Shown here: positions 45,978 to 63,955 of the stretch, in pieces
Layout of the letters: every line of letters begins with the position of its first letter
Position numbering within the stretch: position 1 is the first letter of the stretch
NCBI RefSeq assembly: GCF_041146345.1
Contig: NW_027191414.1
Location: forward strand, 434,001 to 498,000
Length of the DNA stretch: 64,000 nucleotides
DNA from: Neodothiora populina
Lineage: Eukaryota
Reading direction: 5' to 3'
The notes under the pieces: model-generated
What the model was told of the DNA's origin: nothing
What the model saw: the letters and a program-made list of their open reading frames with translations, nothing else
Databases searched by the model: none
Made by a program: the position numbers and the translations under genes

Positions 45978-47218
45978 ATGATGTTGAACCAGATCTCCTA
46001 CTTGGATTGCCTAGCGTTCTTGGTCTTCCTAGCTCCTCAACTCTTGATCCATGTCGGACTTTATGAAGTCTTGAAGTGTGTGCTTCGAGCGTTGCCTTTC
46101 TTTGGTAAAACAAGTCCTGTTCAGTATGACTTCTCAGACAATTGTCAGCTCACTGTCTTTCTACAGTGATCAAGCTGCCTTTTCGTTTCGTCCGAGAGCG
46201 CTACTTTACTAGATATGAAGACAAAACTCCCTTTTGCCAGCATGCCTCCCCGTTCCAGGACTTCGTCATCCGCTGCGTGCGCTACGCCTTTGCGTACATC
46301 CCGGCTTCAATTGGCAAGGTTTTCTTCTCCAGGCCTGTCGCGTTGCCATTCCTGTACTGGCGCATGCTTCGTCACGGTGTTTCCAGGTCCCCGATCCCGT
46401 GGCAAGAGATCGATAGGCCAGGTCTCCAGGGCATTTGGATCTGCTGCGATGAGTCTCAACTGCCTGATGTTGTCGTTTATTATTGCCATGGCGGTGGCTT
46501 CTCAATGGGCTCCAGTTACTTCTACCTCGAGTTCTTGCTAGCCTGGGTGTCACTCCTCAAAGACGCTGGCTTCAAGAATCCTGCGCTTTTCGCACTCGAG
46601 TACACCCTTGTACCTGAAGCCACATATCCGCGACAGATTGATGAAACAATCTCTGGCTACGACTTTGTGCTTGCGCAGGCCGGCGGCTCGCCCGAGAAGA
46701 TCTGTCTGGGTGGCGACTCTGCTGGTGCAACATTGCAACTGAGCCTATTGCTTCACTTGTCCAAAGAATCCACCCCTAAATATCCATTGCCTGCTTTCGC
46801 CATCATCATCTCGCCCTGGGCTGTCATCATATCACCTAAGAATCAAGATACCCCTAGCGATTACTTGAATGCCGAAAGTCTGCACCTTTACGGAAGCCAG
46901 TATATCGGAACAAAGGCGTCAGCTGACGATCCTGTCGTCTCACCTGGCTCATGTAGAGACATCTCATGGTGGCAACGGGCTACACCTTCTCGAGGTTTCT
47001 TCTTCATCTATGGAGCCGAGGAGGTCTTTGCTCCGGAAACTGAAGATCTTGTAGGCTTCCTGAAGAAGACAGGGGCACAGGTTGGCGTTCACAGTGAGAA
47101 GGGCTGGATTCATGCCTGGCCTGTTGTGAAGCTTTTTCTCTGTGACGGTCAAGATGCTAGACAGAGTGGACTGAAAACGATGACCGCAGCGATTAGACAT
47201 AAGATCAAGTCGATATAG
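45978..47218 (+). CDS. Alpha/beta hydrolase, HSL-like (Say1/Mug180-type)
   Basis: HGGG, GDSAG nucleophile elbow, catalytic His in WIHAWP; N-terminal TM; intron ~46105-46166. Confidence 0.88.
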
Positions 47219-47713: not shown

Positions 47714-48841
47714 TCATAGCCAGACAGCAGTCGCCGCAGCTAAAGTCTTTCCCTCATCGTCGACCAATTGCGTTCGAGCAGCTTCATAAAGCTTCTTCCC
47801 GTCGAAACCGAGCACAAACACATAACCTTCAGCACTGTCCGTCAAGGCCATGTACTCAACATCGGGCTTCTCGACACTATCAGGCGCCGGTTCCACAGCG
47901 TTTGCAATGCCACCGCTTGTCGCGGTTTCGTAAATGTCAATCGCGTCGCCATCGATCAGTCCTTCTGCAGTTAGTCTGTAAGCTGCAACGTAACCTTTGC
48001 AGCTCTTCTCGAGGCCGCGAGTGGAAGCGTAGAGGTATCTTGGACTGCCCTTTACAGGTCTGCTTAGTCGGACTTCGTCGGCCCAGTAGTCTTTAGGGTC
48101 TTTGTCGGCGGGAATAATACTGGCGCCGCCAACGAGCTCAAGCGTGGTTCCATCTTCCGCCACGGAGAGAACGTCCACCATACTGCTGTGCTCCTGCAGA
48201 CTATACAGGTATTTGCCGTTGGGGTGCGGCCATGTGTGTCTCGGACCGTCGTTGCTTCGGCTGGCGATCCACTTCATGCCTAAAGTCAGAGGAGGCTTGC
48301 CAGTCGAGGCTGCGGAAACGTCTACACTGTATGACCAGACGCAGTTGTGGCCAATGTCTGCAATGTACAGACTCTTTCCATCCGGCGAAAAGTCTACGGA
48401 ATGCGAGCCATGCCTTAAGCCTCCGAAATCACCGTGAGCCACCTCCCCTGTCTTTCCATCATCCTTGCCCGACCCTTCTCGGAAGTTCAATTCCTGTACC
48501 AATTCACCTAGGCTGCCGTCTGCATTTATAGCAAAGACTTCGCCGGTAGGTCCGCCTGCTGTGTAGAGATGTGTGTCTGACGCCACAACGTAGCCGCTCA
48601 TTGCCTTGATTGGCTTGGAGTTCATAAAAGTCGCCGATCGATCATCATTGATCTTGTATGATGCAACTTTAGCAGGATCTGCCCAAACAGTGGTATACAG
48701 AAATTTGTGATCTTTTGAAAGAGCTAGCCAAGAGTGGCCGCCACACGCCTCTGATCGCTTCACAATTTCTAAGGAAGATGGCGCATTGAATCGAAGTGTG
48801 AATAAAGCGGGAGAGTAGAACGTGCCGACAAGAAAATCCAT
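47714..48841 (-). CDS. 7-bladed beta-propeller lactonase / muconate-cycloisomerase-like protein (no signal peptide)
   Basis: FLVGTF, HGSHSVDFSPDGKSLYIADIG, DGPRHTWPHPNGKYLY, YWADEVRLS, LYASTRG, AATAVWL. Confidence 0.85.
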   Translation of the reverse strand: MDFLVGTFYSPALFTLRFNAPSSLEIVKRSEACGGHSWLALSKDHKFLYTTVWADPAKVASYKINDDRSATFMNSKPIKAMSGYVVASDTHLYTAGGPTGEVFAINADGSLGELVQELNFREGSGKDDGKTGEVAHGDFGGLRHGSHSVDFSPDGKSLYIADIGHNCVWSYSVDVSAASTGKPPLTLGMKWIASRSNDGPRHTWPHPNGKYLYSLQEHSSMVDVLSVAEDGTTLELVGGASIIPADKDPKDYWADEVRLSRPVKGSPRYLYASTRGLEKSCKGYVAAYRLTAEGLIDGDAIDIYETATSGGIANAVEPAPDSVEKPDVEYMALTDSAEGYVFVLGFDGKKLYEAARTQLVDDEGKTLAAATAVWL

Positions 48842-49282
48842 TGTAGAGGCCGAATCAAATTGTTTCAGGAGTGACTTTTTCTGCTTCAAAGGACTTGGTA
48901 CAACAAATTACTTTCTTAGGATACAAGTTCACAAAACGCAGGAACCAGCTACTTCTTACTTGAAGAGAGGCATCGGGTCTCGCATCAATGGATATCGGAA
49001 GATGCACTTCTTAATATTTATCCGAAGCTGGCCAGGCGTCGGACCGGGGGACACGTGTGGTTCGCGACCCGTAAACCGTATCAGGCAATATCATAACCCT
49101 AACGTGCCTGAATGCCGACTCCGACCATGCCGATCATGTGGGCGGGGATGGTTGGGCAATAAACATGATAGGTAATCTATTCTGAAGGGGATACCTCTCG
49201 TTTTTAAATAATCAAGTGCTGTTCACAGCAAAGCGAGGTGGGCAGACCCGCGCTCATAATTTTATGCGAGCAGCGCTCGATC

Positions 49283-51285
49283 ATGGTTGAAGATACAGCT
49301 CTGCCAGCACTGACGCCTGCCTCGTCTGCCGGGTCACCGGACACCGTGACGAGACCCAAACGCAAGGCGAATACTGCTACGAATCGTGCAAAGCAACAGA
49401 AACGGCCTCGCATCGAAGGACCGAGACCGACTGCTATAGATCCAGAGCCAGAGGTACAGACAGAGATACCCGAGATTGGCGAAATCGATAAGCAGTCAAC
49501 CCCCGGAACACCATCGGTGCAACCGCTCGCGCATCAAACACCCCGCAGCCCCCGCCCCTCAGGAGTGACATGTAACTTTATCGACAATCAATTTACACCC
49601 TCGAAAACTCGTAGCTGGATACCTGTCCACGACCCAGTAGGCTTGGCCTCGTCATATACACGATCTGCTCGCTGACATAGAAAGGCAACCCAACAACTCA
49701 TAACCCGCGTGCCTGAATCAACACTCACTGACGTGCATAATGCGGTCAATAGTGCTGAAGCAGCACAGAAGAAGTGGCGGCGAGTACCATTGACAAAAAG
49801 AAGAAAACCCCTTCTTCGCTTGATAGAGCTTATGCGTAACAATGAAATGAGTCTCGTGAGTTATCGCTGTCTAGAAGATGTTCGGATCTTTTCTGATGTG
49901 CTTTTGCAATCCATGCAGGTCAATGCCATTGTCAGAGATGTAGGAAAAACTGCCGACGATGCGATCTCTGAGATATCACGATCAGTGAACATGGTCGAAG
50001 CTGCTCTGTCGTGTACAAGTGTGCTACTCGGATACCACTTCGATAACGAAGCTACTGAAACTCATACCATTGACGAGCCTCTGGGTGTTTGTATGGCTGT
50101 CACACCTTTCAATTTCCCTCTGATGGTGCCGATGTGGCTGATACCTTTCGCCATCACGACGGGTAACACCATCATCTTGAAGCCATCTGAGCAGGCGCCA
50201 AGCGTCATCACTGTCCTAGGTGAGCTCTTCCAACAAGCGGAATTTCCTGAGGGTGTCTTCAGCATCATCCATGGCGGTCCGGCAGCAGTAGATAAATTGC
50301 TTGCTGAGCCCGCCATCAAAGCTGTTTCTTTCGTCGGTTCCGACGCTGCAGGACAACACATCCACAGCACCGCTATCGCGGCACGGAAACGAGTCCAAGC
50401 AAATTGTGGAGTGAAAAACCATGGCGTTGTTATGCCTGATGCCAACAAGCGCCAGACATTATTTGCTCTGGCTGCTAGTTGCTTTGGAGCTGCTGGACAA
50501 CGATGTATGGGCGTAAGCGTGGCGGTCTTCGTGGGCGAAAGCAATGAATGGCTCTCAGAACTTGTCGAGATCGCCGCGCAATTCAAAGTGGGCACCGCTT
50601 CCCAGCAGGGTATTGCATTGGGCCCTCTCATCAGTCGCGCATCCAAGCAAAAGGTCGAACAAATGATACAAGGTGCTATAAAAGACGGTGCCAGGGTTCT
50701 TCTCGACGGAAGAGGTGTACAAGTGCCCGACTTTCCAGACGGCAACTTTATAGGACCGACGATCATTACTGACGTTCAAACGTACATGGAATGCTATCAG
50801 AAGGAGATTTTGGGCCCGGTACTTGTCTGTATGCAAGCTGAGAGTCTTGAGGAAGCCATCGAGTTGGTCAATGATAACCCATGTGAGTCTCATATTTCAG
50901 CTCACATGTGTGGCAATCGACTCATTGGCACACAGATGGTAACGGATGTTCAATATTCACGTCTAGTGCAAAGAAAGCACAGATGTTTCAACGTGAAGTC
51001 AACATAGGACGCATAGGCATTAATGTGCCGCTCATTGGTATGATTATCTTTTTATACCTTTGCCCGCTATCCATGACAAACTGACACTTTTCGCAGCAAC
51101 GTCTGGACAAATATCTAACAGCAGCAACAAAGATAGTTTCTTGGGAGGTAAGATTCTGTATTTTTAACTGTGATGCTTGATTTAGTCGTAAGTTGACCTT
51201 TTGCATAGATATCAACGTCCATGGCTTCAGAGGTCATCAATTCTTCACCACCACCAAGACTATTTCATCCATATGGAAAGATTGA
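49283..51285 (+). CDS. Malonate/methylmalonate-semialdehyde dehydrogenase (ALDH6-type, CoA-acylating), diverged paralog
   Basis: EPLGV..TPFNFP, LKPSE, SFVGS, VQANCGVKNH (lacks the general-base Glu, as in MMSDH), catalytic FGAAGQRCM, EILGPV; about 5 introns; TGA 51283-51285. Confidence 0.88.
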
Positions 51286-51390
51286 TCTTATATCAATCAT
51301 TTTCCTTTGCTGAACCTCAAAGGCTAGGGTATACAACTGATCCAGCAATTGACCGCCCCTGTTGTGGCGAATTCGAGCATCTCCATCAAT

Positions 51391-52065
51391 CTATGAGCCG
51401 GTTCCGTAGAGTCTGTCACCGATGTCGCCAATGCCAGGAGTAATGTAGCCCTTAGCATCAACACCCTCATCGAGGTGACCAACGATCAACTCGAGGCCCT
51501 CGGGCCATGAGTCTGCAACTGCCTTTGCGCCTTGCGGACTAGCGAGGATAGAGAGGAAGGTGATGTGCTTTGCTCCCCATTGTCTGCCGGATGTTAGTGG
51601 AACTCGTCTGGTTTAACGATGTGCAAATACTCGAACGTACCTAAGGATATCAATGGTTGCGGTGGCGGTGCCTCCGGTGGCAATCAGGGGATCTACGACG
51701 AACACTCTGTCGACTGGTGCGCCCTGGCTCGGTAGCTTGTTGTAGTACTCCACAGGCTCGAGTGTCTTCTTCTCGCGGTAGAGACCGAGATGGTACACGA
51801 CGACGTCAATGTCTGGTGATAGAGTGGCGAGGAAAGGCTCGCACATGGGAAGACCAGCGCGAAGGACAATGATCAGAGCGATCTTGGGTGTGCTGTGGGG
51901 GAGAGATCTCGTGGCCTCAATGGAGATGATCTGAGACAGCTCGTTTGTAAGAGTTCGCACTACTGAAGGACGAAGCGATCTATCCCGAAGAAGGTCGAGT
52001 TTGGCTTCGATGGCTGGATGGTCGAGGACCGTGACATTGGAGGCAGATTTTAGTGCGGAAGGCAT
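51391..52065 (-). CDS. Uracil phosphoribosyltransferase (urg2/URC6-like)
   Basis: VLRAGL, HLGLYREKKTLEPVEYYNKLP, DPLIATGGT PRPP motif, GYITPGIGDIGDRLYGT; 1 intron. Confidence 0.93.
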
Positions 52066-52300
52066 TGTGATTGATGTGACGACTTGAATGGAGCAAGAGG
52101 TTTCGAGGCGAAGGTCAAAAGCGATGGATATTATAGTAAAGGAGCTGATGTTGTAGAAAAGTGATGTGCTGTATGAGAAGAGAAGACCATAGATATATAG
52201 CAATTACAAGACTGTTATGAGCTCCACGATATGTTCCATTCATCAGTACAGACATTGCTGATTTTACTCCACTATACTGGCACTCAGCAGTGGTAGTCGC

Positions 52301-52513
52301 TGATAGTCGTGGATAAGCGAGCGTCAACTTTAACCGGGGCTGCGATAGAGTCGAGCGAGCCAGAGATAAGCCTATAATCACAGATAAGAGCGCGGAGATG
52401 CTGCCCTGATAGCTTCGGGTCCCGCCATGAGGTCCTAATCTGATAGCAACTGACATGAACATAATTAGATAGTATTATAACAGAAGATTTACAATTCAGT
52501 CGTAATCGATAAG
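52301..52513. promoter_or_regulatory. GATA-site array in UPRT/URC4 divergent promoter (putative AreA/NIT2 control)
   Basis: Nine GATAR sites on the + strand at ~52301, 52311, 52343, 52364, 52382, 52407, 52441, 52467 and 52507. Confidence 0.75.
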
Positions 52514-52716
52514 TTTCAGATTATTCTGAGAAGTTTGACTTGGATGTGTTAGGGTGTAGCAGATCGCTTTGCGAAAGCACAATAACTCGTTACCCTGCAT
52601 TAACTCTTGATTATCCTCCATCTCACCTTTCGTTGTTCTTCTTTCCCTCTTTTCCTTTCCTTCTTCTTTGTTTGAGCACAATACTTGCAAAGTATCTGTC
52701 ACAGTCACGTATCACT

Positions 52717-54171
52717 ATGTCTTCCGCATACGAAACACTTTCTTCCCTCCCCGCTATCCGTGAGCGGGCAACGGAAGTCTATAAGATCGCGAAAGCAGGA
52801 GAAGCAAGCAATTTTGACCTGCACGAAGATCGTCTCGATGCCACTGTCGATCTGGTCATCAAAGTGATACTGGTCGGTCGAGACCATGAATTGTTCAAAA
52901 CCCATTTGTTCTAATAAGATATCTCAGGGTTCTTTCCCAGTAGACAAGTTCAGCACCATCCCTCCTCATGGTCGCTGGCAGCACTTTGAAACAGGTGATG
53001 TGCCTCGCTTGACCAAAGTGCTGGACCAATGGGAGAGCGGAGGTGTCGATTCCACAGAGCGTTGCAGACGACTCATGGATCTGTTCCTTGTTTCTGTCTT
53101 GCTCGATGCTGGAGCGGGTGATAATTGGAAGTACAAGGAGGCTTCCACAGGCACGGCTGTTGAGCGTAGTGAGGGTCTTGCTGTGGCTTCCTTGTATATG
53201 TTCCTTGATGGGTCATTTGGCGGTGGCAAGGCGGGCTTGGTCAACGGTAAGTCACCTTAGGGTATCATAGTCGTTACAGAAGTCACTAATGTCTGTTGTA
53301 GGTGAGGGATTGAAAAGCCTAACCTCAGAAACGCTTGCGGCAGGTATGCAGGCGAGCGAGGCGAATCCTTTGACGGGCGTTGAGGGAAGGACCTCGTTGC
53401 TGCAGAGTCTTGGAAGCTCACTACTTTCCCAACCCGATATCTTTGGTGCTGAGGGAAGACCAGGAAAGATAGTAGGCAAGTAATTACTCCTAACGCTGGT
53501 CTAGTATCTGAGATTTTCTAACATGTCATGCTCTAGACTATCTGCTGAACTCGAATAAGGGCTCACAATTGGATGTGGCAACGTTATGGGCAGCTCTACA
53601 GCAATTATTGTTACCTATCTGGCCAACGGACCGAACCAAGGTTGAAGGCAAGGCCATCGGGGATGCTTGGCCTCTCAGCACGTTGAAGAAGGTCGCCAAA
53701 GATGATGATCCCTCATCCCTCATCCAGCCCTTCCACAAACTCACTCAATGGCTCACTTACTCGCTTATGGTGCCATTTGTGCGACTACTCAACCTCGAAT
53801 GGACAAACAGCCAGCTACTCACAGGTCTACCAGAATACCGAAATGGTGGTCTATTCGTTGACATGGGTGTGTTGACCCTGAAGCAAGACGTCCTGGCTCG
53901 CGGAGTCGAGAAGTCTGGAGAGCGATTGCCAATGTTCGAACCTGCTGAAGATGTCATTGTTGAATGGAGAGCGCTTACAGTTGCGCTCTTGGACATTGTG
54001 CACGTGGAAGTCAACAAGAAGCTACGCGCGATGGGGGCGACTGCTGATCTATCTCTTGCTCAAGTATTGGAGGCAGGGACGTGGAAGGCAGGTCGTGTGT
54101 TAGCTGCAGAGAAGCGACCAGAAACTCGATCAAGTCCTATTCTTATCATTAGTGATGGCACTCTATTTTAG
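52717..54171 (+). CDS. URC4: DUF1688 uracil catabolism protein (URC4/urg3)
   Basis: IPPHGRWQHF, DLFLVSVLLDAGAG, ERSEGLAVASL, QPFHKLTQWLTYSL, TGLPEYRNGGLF, LAQVLEAGTWKAGR, SDGTLF; 3 introns. Confidence 0.93.
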
Positions 54172-55023
54172 ATAGCTACTTGAACAAAAGTAATGTCGAT
54201 ATTGAGCAATATACATTCCCAACATCGTCCTTGACGTTTCTTCCTAGTTGCAGTATATGTGAGATACTTGATCTAATCATCTTAACATTTGGCATATTTT
54301 ATGTTGTCTTGCATATACTAGCATAAAGATTGCATAGTTATGCATCAATCACAATACCTACTCCGACTTTTCCAAAGGCTAGACTAACCACGGCAACATT
54401 GGTATGAAAACAATCATCCTTGAGAGCTTTGCACCTGTATGTCACTGTTTCCCAAGAAATGATGAGTATTTGTCGACCAAGCTGTCGAGATCAAGAGCAG
54501 CACAGGAAAGGTGTTTGTTATCTCTGTATAGTCGAGCCCTAGATTGCAGCAAAGATAAGCCGAGATAGTATCACCAGCCAATCACAACGCAGTATCTCCT
54601 GCCTGCCAGATGCTTATCTGCACTCAAGATATGGCTCCCCTGCTGGCGACTTTACTATCGATACTGGAGTGGTCTTGTGGTTTCTCGGCCCACTCGAGTC
54701 TCGACTTAGCAATCGCACCAAGGGCACAGTCAGTGCCTGTATGTGATTATCGTCCATACGCCACGATACAGGCCATGAACGTTGTAGGCGGCGTCCGGTG
54801 CCGCATTGCCTATTGTCCAACTCCACTCGTGATAGTGATACGAAGGTAGGATGGCTTCTAGATATAAGTATAGAGTCGAGCACCCGTGTTGTAGTCCATC
54901 ATCGCATCCGTCATTCGTATTTCATACATCTGTATTCGACTCTTTTGCGTTTAGCAAGTGTGACTACTTTCCATAGATCTTTTCGACCACGAGATCATTT
55001 CGTTCTCCATCATATCCAGCATC

Positions 55024-56576
55024 ATGAAGCCAACTACTGAAGAGGAAGTCAAGCCTGAGGTTGTGGGAACAGACAAGGCAGATATCATTCCCCCTACCTC
55101 GCTCGCAAAACGTTATGGAAGCCGCATCATCCTCACCACATACCCTGGCCAAAGTGGCGTGGAGCCCACATCACTCATTTGGGGAGCTGAAGACCCTCAG
55201 AAGCGTGGTCCAGTCATCGTTTCCCGCGCAGGCCAGACGATGAAGTACCGCAATGCCATTGGCGCTCACGGCGGTAGCTACAGTATATACAATGCCCTCG
55301 CCATTGCAGGTGGAGACTTGGACATGGACTTCCGACCCAACTTTTTCAACACCGAGCCGACCTTCAAATTCAAGCCCAACAAGGCATGGGCCGACCCTAG
55401 TGCAATTGTGAGCATGGATCCTTACGGTCACGAAGTCGCGTCGTTGTACACGGGATACATTGAGAAAGGCCTGGATGTGCGACCAACGATAGCCATCACG
55501 AGAGCCAGCATGCGCGTTGCGGAGATCGCCGAAGCAGTCAAGAACGGAGTCCTTCCTGTTGATGGCGAAATCGTCATGACACAAGAGGGCGATGTGCGAG
55601 TCACCAAAGTCGCCGTCGAGCCTGTGTGGCATCTCCCTGGAGTGGCCAAGCGTTTCAACATCGACGAGGGAAAACTCCGTCGTGCCCTTTTCGAACACAC
55701 CGGTGGCATGTACCCTGAGCTCATCACACGACCGGATCTCGAGGTTTTCTTGCCGCCTATTGGTGGATTGACGGTCTACATCTTCGGTCCTCCCGAGAAG
55801 GTCTCAGATCCCAATGTGAAGCTCGCATGTCGTGTCCACGACGAGTGCAACGGCAGTGACGTGTTCCAATCTGATATTTGCACATGTAGACCCTACCTCG
55901 CCTTTGGTATCCAGGAGGCAATTAGAGAAGCACAGAACGGCGGCAGTGGTATCTGCATCTACTTCAGAAAGGAAGGTCGTGCGCTCGGCGAGGTCGTCAA
56001 GTACCTTGTGTACAATTCGCGCAAGCGCGGTGGTGATACTGCAGACAAGTACTTTGCGCGAACAGAGAACATCGCCGGTGTGAGAGACGTAAGTTCAGAC
56101 CTCGAAATTCATCAAAGTCAAATCTTTTAAGACAACCGCTGACATTTTCACAGATGCGTTTCCAAGAACTCATGCCTGACATCCTTCACTGGCTCGGCGT
56201 CACCAAGATCGACCGCATGTTGTCAATGTCAAACATGAAGCACGACGCAATCGTTGGTTCTGGTATCCCCATCCTCGAGCGGATACCTATCCCCGATGGT
56301 AAGTCTCTCCCCCTGCATGGGATTCCACAACAAGACCACATAGACACATAAGTCTGACATTCGCGACCACAGAGATGATTCCCGAAGACTCCCGTGTCGA
56401 GATCGACGCCAAGATCAACGCCGGCTACTTCACGACAGGAAAGGCATACACGGACGCCGAACTCAAGCAAGTCAAGGGTAGAGGCTGGGAGAAGTGGGAG
56501 GATGTCGCTGTAAGCAATCCACCGAACATGATGACGCTACTTGGCAATGCAATACTGACTCATTTCCCAGCACTGA
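55024..56576 (+). CDS. URC1: GTP cyclohydrolase II-like uracil catabolism protein (URC1/urg1)
   Basis: RIILTTYPGQ, RGPVIVSR, RNAIGAHGGSYSIY, RVHDECNGSDVFQSDICTCRPYL, KEGRALGEVVKYLVYN, DMRFQELMPD; 3 introns, last exon CACTGA. Confidence 0.95.
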
Positions 56577-57015
56577 ACGCATTATTGCAACAATCTTAAC
56601 AATATTGTTTGAAATCTATCACATTATACCTTTTATAGATTCATAGCATGGGACGACTGATGGAGGTTGTCCAAAAGAGGTCATACTTGAAGTAAGCAAA
56701 GCGTTTCGTGTTTTCCCTTATATGCCTTATTGGCGTCATTGCTGGAGCATCATATGAATCAAATCGCAATAACAAAACCATATCATTCGCACAACATGTT
56801 ACCATAATGTACGATCAAAGCGAGGAAAAGTGAGGCGTGTCTGCGCTTGACCGCACCCTTGATATACTCAAACTTTATTTGACACTATGAGATGCCATAA
56901 CATGCGATGTGAACAGCAGAACTAATAGAATAAATCACGCTAATCAATCATTCACAATAGAGATAGCCATGGACTGCGGCACGTCGAGCGGCAAAAAAAA
57001 AGGCAAAAAAAATCT

Positions 57016-57150
57016 TGATCAGAGTGGGATTCGAACCCACGCAGATTACTCTACTAGAAACCTTGTCCTGCTCATGGATGAACAGAAAGCTATATTTCGT
57101 AAACGAAACTCGCTTGAGTCTAGCGCCTTAGACCGCTCGGCCATCTGACC
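57016..57150 (-). tRNA. tRNA-Leu(CAA) with ~53-nt intron (57060-57112)
   Basis: GGTCAGA/TCTGATC acceptor stem, TGGCCGAGCGGTCTAAGGC D arm, CTAGA-CTCAAG^T-TCTAG, GTTCGAATC T loop; downstream T run. Confidence 0.95.
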
Positions 57151-57617
57151 ATTGATAAAAGTTATGTTTTTGTATCGATATAGAATGCTAATGTGGTCAA
57201 GGTCCTGATAGTGTTCGTGTACTTCGGCATCGTGGTATCGTGGAGGTCAAATTGAGTGCGTTCTGGGGGAGATTTATGCTGTGCCTTGTTCATTATCTGA
57301 ATGCGCAATCTTAATTCTTCCATTATTTGCGCCGCCACTGTAGTTAATCAGAGAATTGCACTTAGTCGTCAGATATCTATTATCCTTCTGCTAAGCACCG
57401 CCTGCATGGAGGAACAATTTCACAAACGGCACCGACGCTGCGACACACCACAGACTGGTGCGTGACACATTTTTCCGGAAAAGAACATCAGAAGCTGTTC
57501 GCAAAAGACCCCGATCGCCTCGGAGTCGAAAGCACGGTGCATCTAGAATGTGAAGCGCGAAAAGAACAAGAATCCGTAATTCATATTCCACATATTGCAT
57601 ATTAACGCCAAGAACAT

Positions 57618-57736
57618 GGCAAGATGGCCGAGCGGTCTAAGGCGCTAGACTCAAGCGATTCAAAGCTTTCCGCTCTCCAGAGCGGTTGAGGTTTCTAGTA
57701 GAGAAATCTGCGTGGGTTCAAATCCCACTCTTGTCA
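57618..57736 (+). tRNA. tRNA-Leu(CAA) with ~37-nt intron (57656-57692)
   Basis: GGCAAGA/TCTTGTC acceptor stem, same D and anticodon arms, GTTCAAATC T loop; T6 terminator ~57744. Confidence 0.95.
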
Positions 57737-58189
57737 CATTTCCTTTTTTGCTTTTCTGCCTTGACGCGGATTGGGGAGAGGGGCAGAAACACTGAGTGAA
57801 GTTTTGCGATTTTCTGCTATGCCTGGAGTATGTTTTGACTGGACCTCCGACAAAGAGACAAATACTTCAAGGGGGCCGGATTGAAGAGGTAGAGATTGGA
57901 CTGTTTCCCCTCACACAGCCGAGTTATGCTGGTGACGTACTGTAGACTTCAACGGCTCAATACCTCTACTTTAACATTGACAGCATTGGGATCGTACTGC
58001 ACTGATACCCATCGTCTGGACTCCACTGCTCAATTGTCGATCGAGATATGGCTAGCCCAAAGTTTCCCTTGACTGTATACGCTGCAAGATGCAAGGGACG
58101 ACTCTCAAAGTGTAGGCTATGATGCAGTACTTTCATAATATCGTTTTCAGTTTCTTTATTTCTTACAAAACATTATTATCTTTTGATCA

Positions 58190-61816: not shown

Positions 61817-62592
61817 ACGACCCATAGATGAAGATAAAGCTACAACACGTGCGTCTGCCGCTGAGTGAGTTAAGATTCTCGCCTTCGGCTTCACGTCGCT
61901 CCCGGCTTCATGCTCGGCGGCTTGGTGGCTTGGATGCTTCATGTGTAAAGCATGCGTGAACGCCTTCTCGGTCCTATTCTATATAGTATCCGTATTAGAA
62001 ATCAATAACTAACTTAGCAGAGTTTATACAGTACTCCGTATATGCCACAAAGTTATATAGGATATGAATTAATAATCTCACCGATGTTGACAAACCAGGA
62101 TCTTTCATTTTGCTGGCTCTTGCGACTAGTGCCAGAAGATATAAGGTCTGCGAGGTCGGTCGGCTGCCACTTCCCCGAAGATTCCATCTCCACAGTTCCG
62201 CTACCACGAGTTTCATCTACTTCCGCATCAAGATTGCGGGGATCTGCAGCAGCCACATTACATGCGTACACTGCCAAGGCCACCAATACATTGACGAAAT
62301 GACGATCGCGCATGATATCTGTCGAGATGCACGAAGCCTTAGCACATAGCCTCGAACCGATCTTACCAAGGCAGATCAGTCGGCATGTTGTTGCATTCGC
62401 TCTGCACCCCGCTCTGATGTAGTCGCATCGGGCCGTATGCAATGCGCCTGTAATGTGTATATAAAGGTATGCTGGACTCGCATGTCTTGTCAAAGGTGAC
62501 TGTGACCCTCATTTGTTAATCCCTCGAAGGCGTGTCTTGTTCCCTCGGATATCGAGACTATCTCGAGTACACACAGACCTATGCATTACAGC

Positions 62593-63955
62593 ATGTTCTC
62601 CCCTATCGTACAGCTTTGCGCTGTCGCAGGTCTAGCCTCGGCGACCAACCTTTTCGTCTCATCCTATGACGGTAACATCACCACACTGTCTTTGACCGAG
62701 ACAAATGGATCATATAACCTTGGGAAAACATACTCCAATGATGGCTGTGCGCCGAATCCTTCTTGGCTTACTCTAGACTATGGTCATGGCGTTCTGTACT
62801 GCTTGGATGAGGGTCTAACCACCGTAAATGGCACCTTGAGCTCTTTCACCATTGGCGCCAACGGTGAATTAGATCTTGTGGAGAAGAAAGACACCATCAA
62901 CGGACCCGTCAGTGGAATCGTTTATGGCAATCCTGCCACAGGCAAGAGAGCGATTGCCCTGGCTCATTAGTACGTGATCTTGCCCTTGTATCGTACCCCT
63001 CTTGCATGGATGTCTGACAGAATATACAGCGTTGGAAGTGCCGTGAGTAGCTGGACTCTGAGTCCCTCGAGCAACGGAAACTTCACTTTCAACGAAGCAT
63101 TCACGTACGAGCTGGACCAACCTGGTCCAAATGCCCAGCGTCAGGATGCACCTCACGAGCACGAGGCAGTGGTCGACCCAACAGGGCAATTCATCCTGGT
63201 TCCTGATCTCGGCGCTGATGTTGTCCGTGTCTTCTCTATCGACCCAGACACCCTCAAGCTCACGCCCGAATCGCCACTCGAGGTCACACCAGGATCTGGT
63301 CCTCGCCACATTGCTTTCTACAACCCTCACAGCACCGTGTGCAAGACTTGCACGAGCTACATGTTCCTTGTCACCGAGCTCACCAACCGCGTCATCAGCT
63401 ATCGTCTGAGCTACCCTGCTGCTGGCGGCATGTCGTTCACCGAGGCTTTTAACATCAGCACCTTTGGTGACAACGCTGTTCCCGTTAACAACACTGCTGC
63501 CGAGATTGAGGTTTCTGTAAGTCTTTCCCACGTGTATCCTCGGTATCCTGCCTTGGCACTATATTCACCTCGCAGAAGAAGTGACGATAGACTACTGACT
63601 CACTCTTCAGCCCGACAACCGCTTCCTCATCGTCTCAAACCGAAACAACACCATCTTCAACCTGCCCAACCCAGACTACCCAACAAACAAGACCGAGATC
63701 CCCTCGGACGCCATCTCGACCTACCAGATCAACAAGGCCGATGGCTCCCTGACTCACACTCAGCTCTGGCCCGCCGGCGGCTTCTTTCCTCGTTCTTTCA
63801 GCATTAGCAAGGCCGGAGACTTGGTTGCTGTTGGCTTGCAGTACAGTAGCGAGGTCGTCATCTTGAGTCGTGATGTCGCTAGTGGCAATTTGGGAAGGCC
63901 GGTTGCGGCTATAGCGATTGATGGACAGGTCACTTCTGTTGTGTGGAATGAGTAG
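62593..63955 (+). CDS. Secreted 6-phosphogluconolactonase-like beta-propeller (YkgB-type)
   Basis: Signal peptide, NPSWL, RQDAPHEHEAVVDPTG, VPDLGADVVR, GSGPRH, PDNRFLIVSNR, FPRSF; 2 introns; TAG 63955. Confidence 0.88.

Follow-up and report, generated by a model that had tools for sequence, protein, structure and literature searches.

We analysed a stretch of 64,000 nucleotides, here called the window, from contig NW_027191414.1 of Neodothiora populina (Dothideales, Dothioraceae). The window contains a gene of the ALDH6 family of methylmalonate-semialdehyde dehydrogenases (MMSDHs), the ALDH6-like gene, next to three homologs of the URC genes for uracil breakdown. We think that this gene probably encodes a URC-dedicated, non-mitochondrial, acetylating malonate-semialdehyde dehydrogenase. 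The four genes all lie within 49283-56599, which brings the URC homologs together within 7.3 kb:

49283-51285, plus strand: ALDH6-like gene (ATG to TGA) with six exons and a product of 572 residues.
51391-52065, minus strand: UPRT-family gene (URC6-like), two exons, ATG at 52065, convergent with the ALDH6-like gene (Pfam UPRTase, 96.3 bits).
52717-54171, plus strand: DUF1688 gene (URC4-like), several exons, ATG at 52717, approximate model (PF07958, 292 and 138 bits on two exon open reading frames).
55024-56599 (end approximate), plus strand: URC1-like gene with GTP_CH_N and GTP cyclohydrolase II domains (Pfam, 291.8 and 38.6 bits), first exon 55024-56130.

The first-pass annotation had assigned the ALDH6-like gene to 49283-51285, which are exactly its ATG and TGA, and its association with URC genes was confirmed by the URC6-, URC4- and URC1-like neighbors. 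The hand-built and splice-checked model has exons at 49283-49636, 49685-49855, 49919-50882, 50936-51037, 51097-51147 and 51209-51285. The five introns of 48, 63, 53, 59 and 61 nt all have GT..AG ends, and the spliced coding sequence of 1719 nt contains a single, terminal stop codon. Intron 2 (49856-49918, 63 nt) is in frame and free of stop codons, such that its retention would add an insertion of 21 residues without truncating the protein. The product matches P0001, 'hypothetical protein AAFC00_005794 [Neodothiora populina]', at every position from end to end, and methylmalonate-semialdehyde dehydrogenase is its name in databases.

The stop codons of the ALDH6-like and UPRT genes are separated by 105 bp, and the UPRT and DUF1688 genes diverge from a common promoter region of 651 bp. 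Against the upp genes of bacterial URC loci, the UPRT gene shows 32-41% identity. It is a divergent member of its family, with 35% identity over 52 residues to the UPRTase domain of P0031 from Thyridium curvatum. The URC1-like gene matched the PDB entries 7eev and 7ej3 with 382 bits. No homologs of URC3,5, URC2 or URC8 were found among the open reading frames of at least 150 residues in the window. URC8 reportedly reduces malonate semialdehyde, a result said to come from Rasmussen et al. in 2014. Because URC8-type short-chain dehydrogenases are common, the ALDH6-like enzyme may add an exit from the pathway rather than replace URC8. URC1-6 and URC8 are described as components of the URC pathway, with URC1, URC4 and URC6 as its core and 3-hydroxypropionate as a product (PMC7530994), and the clustering of URC genes in fungi is already known (PMC3869809).

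The family membership of the product is clear. On the NCBIfam model for CoA-acylating MMSDH (TIGR01722), it scored 534.0 bits against a curated cutoff of 448.5, with the next family at 297.0 bits, a match far beyond chance. Pfam Aldedh gave 402.4 bits. Among PDB sequences, human ALDH6A1 was the best match (325 bits), followed by bacterial MMSDHs (233-262 bits), and the best aldehyde dehydrogenase (ALDH) outside the MMSDHs reached 152 bits. An AlphaFold2 model computed from an alignment of 32 sequences (mean pLDDT 80.6, core mostly above 90) superimposed on ALDH6A1 (8xxq_A) with a target-normalised TM-score of 0.94 and a root-mean-square deviation of 1.4 Å over 481 columns. The functional residues located by alignment and the two regions in which the protein departs from its relatives are as follows:

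49283-49570, plus strand: N-terminal extension (about 96 residues) with many Pro, Ser, Thr and Lys, predicted to be disordered (pLDDT below 50 at residues 1-90).
49979-49981, plus strand: codon of R196, first carboxylate-binding Arg (canonical DVLRGL, here EISRSV; role according to PMC12041015).
50111-50113, plus strand: codon of N240, oxyanion-hole Asn in PFNFP.
50402-50404, plus strand: codon of N337, Asn at the position of the ALDH general-base Glu (QANCGVKNH).
50501-50506, plus strand: codons of R370 and C371, second carboxylate-binding Arg and catalytic Cys (GQRCM).
51022-51210, plus strand: clade-specific C-terminal loop, residues 526-548 (NVPLIATSGQISNSSNKDSFLGD), encoded by exons 4-6, in place of canonical NVPIPVPLPMFSFTGNKKS.

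In its definition of the ALDH6 family, PMC12041015 describes a catalytic Cys and an oxyanion Asn that are kept, a triad Glu replaced by Asn, Leu or Phe, and two conserved Arg residues that bind the substrate carboxylate. Lacking the triad Glu, these enzymes are described there as activating no water and handing the thioester to CoA instead of hydrolysing it. The ALDH6-like protein has this set complete, with C371, N240, R196, R370 and N337 replacing Glu. In the alignment with canonical MMSDHs, C371 (codon at nt 50504) is invariant and R370 nearly so, and N337 aligns with the Asn of canonical QANLGAKNH. Judging from the motifs, R196 and R370 would be equivalent to Arg107 and Arg283 of 1T90. The first-pass annotation had recognized an MMSDH-type enzyme by a QRCM catalytic Cys and an NxGxKNH motif without the general-base Glu; the TIGR01722 score supports the assignment, and both motifs are present as G368-Q-R-C371-M and N337-C-G-V-K-N-H, the latter from nt 50402 onward.

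We then compared the protein with the canonical enzymes, by which we mean the ordinary eukaryotic or fungal MMSDHs of the ALDH6A1/Ald6 type (EC 1.2.1.27, 1.2.1.18; TIGR01722, cd07085). The 33 best database matches all came from Pezizomycotina or fungal-like contigs, one rice protein excepted, with identities falling from 95% to about 47%. These relatives include Delphinella (75%), Xylona (63%), Exophiala, Bisporella, Capronia, uniseriate species of Aspergillus section Nigri, Penicillium, Monascus, Fusarium solani, Microdochium, Ceratocystis and Grosmannia. Canonical MMSDHs of animals, plants, Mucoromycota, Basidiomycota and Ascomycota came next in the match list at 44-48%. In direct comparison, the ALDH6-like protein shows 41-45% identity to canonical enzymes, whose identity among themselves is 74-96%. 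Of 215 alignment columns conserved in at least 90% of the canonical enzymes, 118 are kept at a level of at least 80% in the clade of the ALDH6-like protein, and the majority of clade members differ at 68.

The phylogenetic trees agreed on the separation of the two forms. In a FastTree analysis of 132 sequences and 485 columns, all 27 clade members grouped together with an SH-like support of 1.0; their stem measures 0.51 substitutions per site, as opposed to 0.08 for the canonical eukaryotic group. An IQ-TREE analysis under LG+C20+F+G4 (46 rows, 512 columns) likewise grouped the 16 sampled clade members with a support of 100 and placed 11 canonical Ascomycota in a separate group, also with a support of 100. 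On these trees, the ALDH6-like gene is a member of a long-branched, Pezizomycotina-only paralog clade. The deeper placement differed between methods. IQ-TREE nested the paralog clade in a fungi-only group of 31 rows (support 95), adjoining a basidiomycete sequence (89), whereas FastTree placed it as sister to all eukaryotic canonical enzymes with supports of 0.77 and 0.28 in two trees. The approximately unbiased test did not reject the canonical eukaryotic MMSDHs as one clade with the paralog outside (p 0.17). The best tree favours an ancient gene duplication in fungi with rapid divergence afterwards over a transfer from bacteria.

The two termini also distinguish the paralog from the canonical enzymes. 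All 22 canonical MMSDHs compared have a basic presequence of the MAARR type, with 0-1 acidic and 2-8 basic residues among the first 30. No such presequence is found in the ALDH6-like protein, which has three acidic residues in this region, nor in the 24 clade members compared, all of which have between one and eight. M1 is the only Met within the first 110 residues, and the N-terminal extension therefore belongs to the protein, as no in-frame ATG follows before the catalytic domain. The extension contains the basic stretches RPKRKAN (KRK) and KQQKRPR. They resemble nuclear-localisation signals and have counterparts in 14 of 24 clade members, although the extension is otherwise unconserved. The protein is apparently non-mitochondrial and possibly nucleocytosolic. 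At the other end, the canonical loop NVPIPVPLPMFSFTGNKKS is replaced by NVPLIATSGQISNSSNKDSFLGD, variants of which occur throughout the paralog clade. The loop is followed by 24 residues, as opposed to 38-43 in 30 canonical sequences, such that about 17 tail residues are missing.

The protein database contains both ALDH6 forms for six species:

Delphinella strobiligena: paralog P0002, canonical P0265.
Xylona heveae: paralog P0007, canonical P0268.
Monascus purpureus: paralog P0021, canonical P0191.
Penicillium atrosanguineum: paralog P0033, canonical P0286 and P0290.
Dothideomycetes sp. NU459: paralog P0010, canonical P0210.
Aspergillus fijiensis: paralog P0335, canonical P0169.

For N. populina itself, no canonical MMSDH was among the best 120 of 8000 scored proteins with either a Caloplaca or an Aureobasidium query, and the listed members of two Aureobasidium protein clusters were from Aureobasidium or unnamed JGI entries. 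Since the 120-protein lists were saturated with proteins of 75-85% identity, a missing N. populina entry is not evidence of absence. The public annotation of N. populina may lack the canonical gene or contain a faulty model of it. The canonical enzyme of Delphinella has a match of 96% identity in P0244, an unnamed Logan protein.

A second gene was visible at the level of DNA. Two sequencing runs that contain the window gene derive from one sample, which is possibly the source of the window. As reference we took L055, a metagenomic locus of 2304 bases with a canonical fungal MMSDH, and overlaid it at 80% likeness with the contigs of these runs. One contig per run was colinear with L055, one of 24,841 bp at a depth of 28 and one of 5,740 bp at a depth of 27.5. 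The aligned parts were 722-957 (47 differences in 236 positions, 80% identity) and 1244-1444 (33 in 201, 84% identity); the overlay covered these two parts alone, and the uncovered parts of L055 are uninformative either way. The contig flanks, translated by eye, read AFPAWSRTSL and STVVFVGETK, which match the canonical consensus (AFPAWKRTSLL and STVVLVGETKNW) and not the window gene (AAQKKWRRVPL and VSVAVFVGESNEW). Thus, an ALDH6 gene of the canonical type is present in this sample besides the window gene.

These data bear on the simplest alternative, in which the ALDH6-like gene would be the organism's ordinary mitochondrial MMSDH of valine degradation. The top family match to MMSDH, the database name methylmalonate-semialdehyde dehydrogenase and the missing N. 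populina entry in both 120-protein lists would fit such an enzyme. However, it is contradicted by the low identity to canonical enzymes, the separate clade, the missing presequence and the second canonical-type gene, and we regard it as highly improbable. The first-pass annotation had proposed a dedicated paralog with a diverged C-terminus, distinct from the valine-pathway enzyme, and had named a sole canonical MMSDH as the finding that would speak against it. The tree, the N-terminus and the exchanged loop with its shortened tail bear out a paralog distinct from the valine-pathway enzyme, and the contigs of the sample contain a canonical-type gene as well.

Next, we looked at whether the neighborhood of MMSDH and URC genes recurs elsewhere. 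Two gene models of the paralog clade combine both functions. P0031 from Thyridium curvatum joins a UPRTase domain (residues 22-207) to a clade-member Aldedh domain (243-562), and P0032 from Stachybotrys elegans joins a UPRTase fragment (75-114) to a clade-member Aldedh domain (181-631). Both are from Sordariomycetes and belong to a different subclade of the paralog than the ALDH6-like gene. They look like merged neighboring genes, and demonstrate same-strand adjacency either way.

In bacteria, we examined the best 80 of 586 matches to the window URC1 exon (loci L078-L157, not a random set) and sought the neighbors of URC1 by tblastn with queries from the window. The URC1-like exon is 52-60% identical to these 80 homologs, which is unusually high across domains of life. 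A DUF1688 gene was found in 76 of the 80 loci and a upp gene in 57. In five loci (L084, L097, L142, L138 and L088), URC1 is immediately preceded on its own strand by an MMSDH-type gene with 443-498 bits on TIGR01722, and a sixth locus has a weak match to a non-MMSDH aldehyde dehydrogenase. The bacterial URC-linked MMSDHs form their own clade with an SH-like support of 0.998, far from the fungal clade, and MMSDHs were therefore recruited to URC genes at least twice, independently. The link between MMSDH and URC genes is thus not confined to the window, and the independent recruitment is the strongest argument that the ALDH6-like enzyme may act on a URC product.

Family membership and gene context are our grounds for inferring which substrate the enzyme uses, that it depends on CoA, where in the cell it works and that it is linked to uracil flux. 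In the proposed scheme, the UPRT (URC6-like) enzyme and the URC1-like cyclohydrolase would open the uracil ring of a uridine nucleotide and thereby release the three-carbon aldehyde malonate semialdehyde, with the ribosylurea branch handled by the URC4-like protein. R196 and R370 would bind the carboxylate of malonate semialdehyde, and C371 would form the thiohemiacetal with the assistance of N240. After hydride transfer to NAD(P)+, the beta-carboxyl group would be lost as CO2 or bicarbonate. The acetyl-enzyme would then be resolved by CoA, because N337 replaces the water-activating Glu of other ALDHs, and acetyl-CoA would be produced outside the mitochondrion. There are precedents for this chemistry. 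MMSDH-type enzymes are reported to oxidise malonate semialdehyde to acetyl-CoA, and the Pseudomonas enzyme KES23460 is described as selective for malonate semialdehyde and about 10 times faster with CoA than without it (PMC4907197). Furthermore, deletion of ALDH6 homologs in Aspergillus niger is reported to raise 3-hydroxypropionate titres, by 83% for Anald6a and by 45% for Anald6b, which implies that both drain malonate semialdehyde in vivo; PMC10061894 does not connect these genes with uracil.

Several observations weigh against a URC-dedicated role. The fungal context evidence comes from three genomes only, namely the window and the two fused gene models. No MMSDH adjoins the URC genes in 75 of the 80 bacterial loci, 74 of which have no aldehyde dehydrogenase match at all, so the URC core works without one. 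The promoters of the three URC-cluster genes have no motif in common beyond chance: they share seven 7-mers, where 3.9 were expected and 200 shuffles gave up to 10, and not a single 8-mer. The non-mitochondrial location follows from a simple count of charged residues, which is a heuristic and not a trained predictor. The canonical MMSDH of N. populina, missing from both 120-protein lists, is represented by contigs of one sample, which may be contaminated. Moreover, the loop by the active-site region has GQISN where canonical enzymes have PMFSF and is modelled with low confidence at residues 531-539 and 550-554, and the substrate could therefore differ.

The absence of an adjacent MMSDH from most bacterial loci and of a common promoter motif would suit a general cytosolic malonate-semialdehyde dehydrogenase serving the catabolism of beta-alanine, propionate or 3-hydroxypropionate, for which the adjacency to URC genes would have no functional meaning. 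ALDH6 enzymes are reported to serve such routes elsewhere (PMC4907197, PMC10061894). However, the UPRT link recurs in two Sordariomycete gene models of the other subclade, an unrelated MMSDH lineage independently joined bacterial URC operons, and in the six species with both forms the canonical enzyme already covers the general routes. We therefore consider a general enzyme rather unlikely, and retain a URC-dedicated malonate-semialdehyde dehydrogenase as the preferred explanation.

Within the paralog clade, the active site is not uniform. The general-base motif was readable in 40 of 42 clade sequences (P0001-P0034, P0051, P0057, P0084, P0102, P0105, P0335, P0338 and P0339), with three residues at the critical position:

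Asn, 8 of 40: the ALDH6-like protein and its seven closest relatives (P0001-P0008).
Asp, 6 of 40: P0009, P0051, P0057, P0084, P0105 and P0339.
Glu, 26 of 40: the remaining clade sequences.

The trees place P0009 and P0339, both of them Asp forms, on early branches of the subclade with Glu, a position that suggests that Asn was replaced by Asp first and by Glu later. Clade members with a restored Glu depart from the ALDH6 definition of PMC12041015, suggesting that deacylation may be hydrolytic in these proteins. The oxyanion position varies as well. Among the 38 clade motifs readable there, Ser is found in four (P0020, P0030, P0033 and P0335, from Aspergillus section Nigri and Penicillium) and Thr in one (P0007 of Xylona heveae), whereas all 30 canonical sequences have Asn.

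This variation raises the question of whether the enzyme could belong to the URC pathway and yet perform a different reaction, either on another URC aldehyde, such as a ureido- or ribosyl-bearing one, or without CoA to give acetate or malonate. The exchange of the loop PIPVPLPMFSF for PLIATSGQISN, the loss of the C-terminal tail and the Glu or Asp in most relatives would be compatible with such an activity. MMSDHs are also reported to show a slower CoA-independent reaction (PMC4907197), and some steps of the URC pathway are described as uncharacterised (PMC7530994). However, the ALDH6-like protein and its seven closest relatives keep Asn at the general-base position, and both Arg residues for substrate carboxylate binding and decarboxylation are kept, completing the ALDH6 active-site set (PMC12041015). 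A different chemistry is thus unlikely for the window gene, for which we continue to favour CoA-dependent oxidation of malonate semialdehyde.

As a tentative and broader proposal, which we think rather unlikely as a whole, the clade could represent a novel ALDH6 subfamily of filamentous ascomycetes that is pyrimidine-catabolic, extramitochondrial and maybe nuclear, given the basic KR-x-R stretches, and that regained the general base stepwise. Asn would be retained in the subclade of the ALDH6-like gene, Asp would mark early-branching members, and Glu the crown group. If so, uracil breakdown would directly feed the nucleocytosolic acetyl-CoA pool, and a family defined by its missing Glu would contain a natural series from CoA-dependent to hydrolytic deacylation. 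The Asn/Asp/Glu series can be seen as a natural experiment on the choice between CoA and water in ALDH6 enzymes.

Compared with canonical ALDH6A1/Ald6 (PDB 8xxq), the ALDH6-like protein has the same fold, catalytic Cys, oxyanion Asn, two Arg residues and Asn in place of Glu. It differs in its disordered, basic extension of about 96 residues, the absence of a presequence, the rewritten loop and the shorter tail, and its gene lies in a URC cluster and not in a context of valine catabolism. The URC system of Lachancea kluyveri (URC1, URC3,5, URC4, URC6 and URC8) and the urg1/urg3 cluster of Schizosaccharomyces pombe are known related arrangements, as URC1-, URC4- and URC6-type genes are clustered in the window, too. 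In both the yeast pathway and the window cluster, the three-carbon unit of uracil needs disposal. However, the yeast product is described as 3-hydroxypropionate (PMC7530994, PMC3869809), and the clustered accessory gene of the window encodes an oxidising enzyme of the ALDH6 type.

Among bacterial enzymes, KES23460 of Pseudomonas sp. AAC and IolA of Bacillus subtilis belong to the same family and are reported to convert malonate semialdehyde to acetyl-CoA with NAD+ and CoA (PMC4907197). They are about 34-35% identical to the ALDH6-like protein by structural alignment, and their genes are paired with beta-alanine transaminase or inositol catabolism instead of uracil ring-opening genes. The bacterial mmsA-URC1-DUF1688-upp operons of Halobacteriovorax, Halobacteriovoraceae, Corallococcus and a metagenome-assembled genome labelled 'Deltaproteobacteria' have an MMSDH-type gene adjoining the URC core as in the window. 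Their predicted logic, conversion of malonate semialdehyde to acetyl-CoA, is the same as that proposed for the window gene. The differences lie in the unrelated MMSDH lineage and the operon organisation, in Leu instead of Asn near the general-base position and Lys for the first Arg (where the alignment is gapped), and in a C-terminus of the usual bacterial pattern.

Full-text literature searches, with most subscription journals outside their coverage, returned no published link between a fungal ALDH6 paralog and URC genes. Neither the chemistry nor the family nor the pathway is new, and there is a bacterial analogue, but a distinct, clustered and non-mitochondrial fungal subfamily appears to be novel. 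URC is the least understood route of pyrimidine degradation, and the one fate described for its three-carbon fragment is 3-hydroxypropionate, in yeasts. A URC-dedicated malonate-semialdehyde dehydrogenase would put a concrete enzyme to this fragment and would make uracil a carbon source, besides a nitrogen source, for filamentous ascomycetes. There may also be a practical side, as Aspergillus strains engineered for 3-hydroxypropionate are reported to lose yield via ALDH6-type enzymes (PMC10061894), and the non-canonical second paralog is a candidate for this loss in Aspergillus.

A few features of the window lie outside the URC genes. Translations resembling tRNA-related sequence at 56900-57800 were considered and set aside, as ARAGORN predicted no tRNA there. 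Two genes encode seven-bladed beta-propeller lactonases (PF10282), one at 47714-48907 on the minus strand and the other at 62506-63807 on the plus strand. The former is divergent from the ALDH6-like gene, with 441 bp between the start codons, and beyond it lies an alpha/beta-hydrolase gene at 46130-47218.

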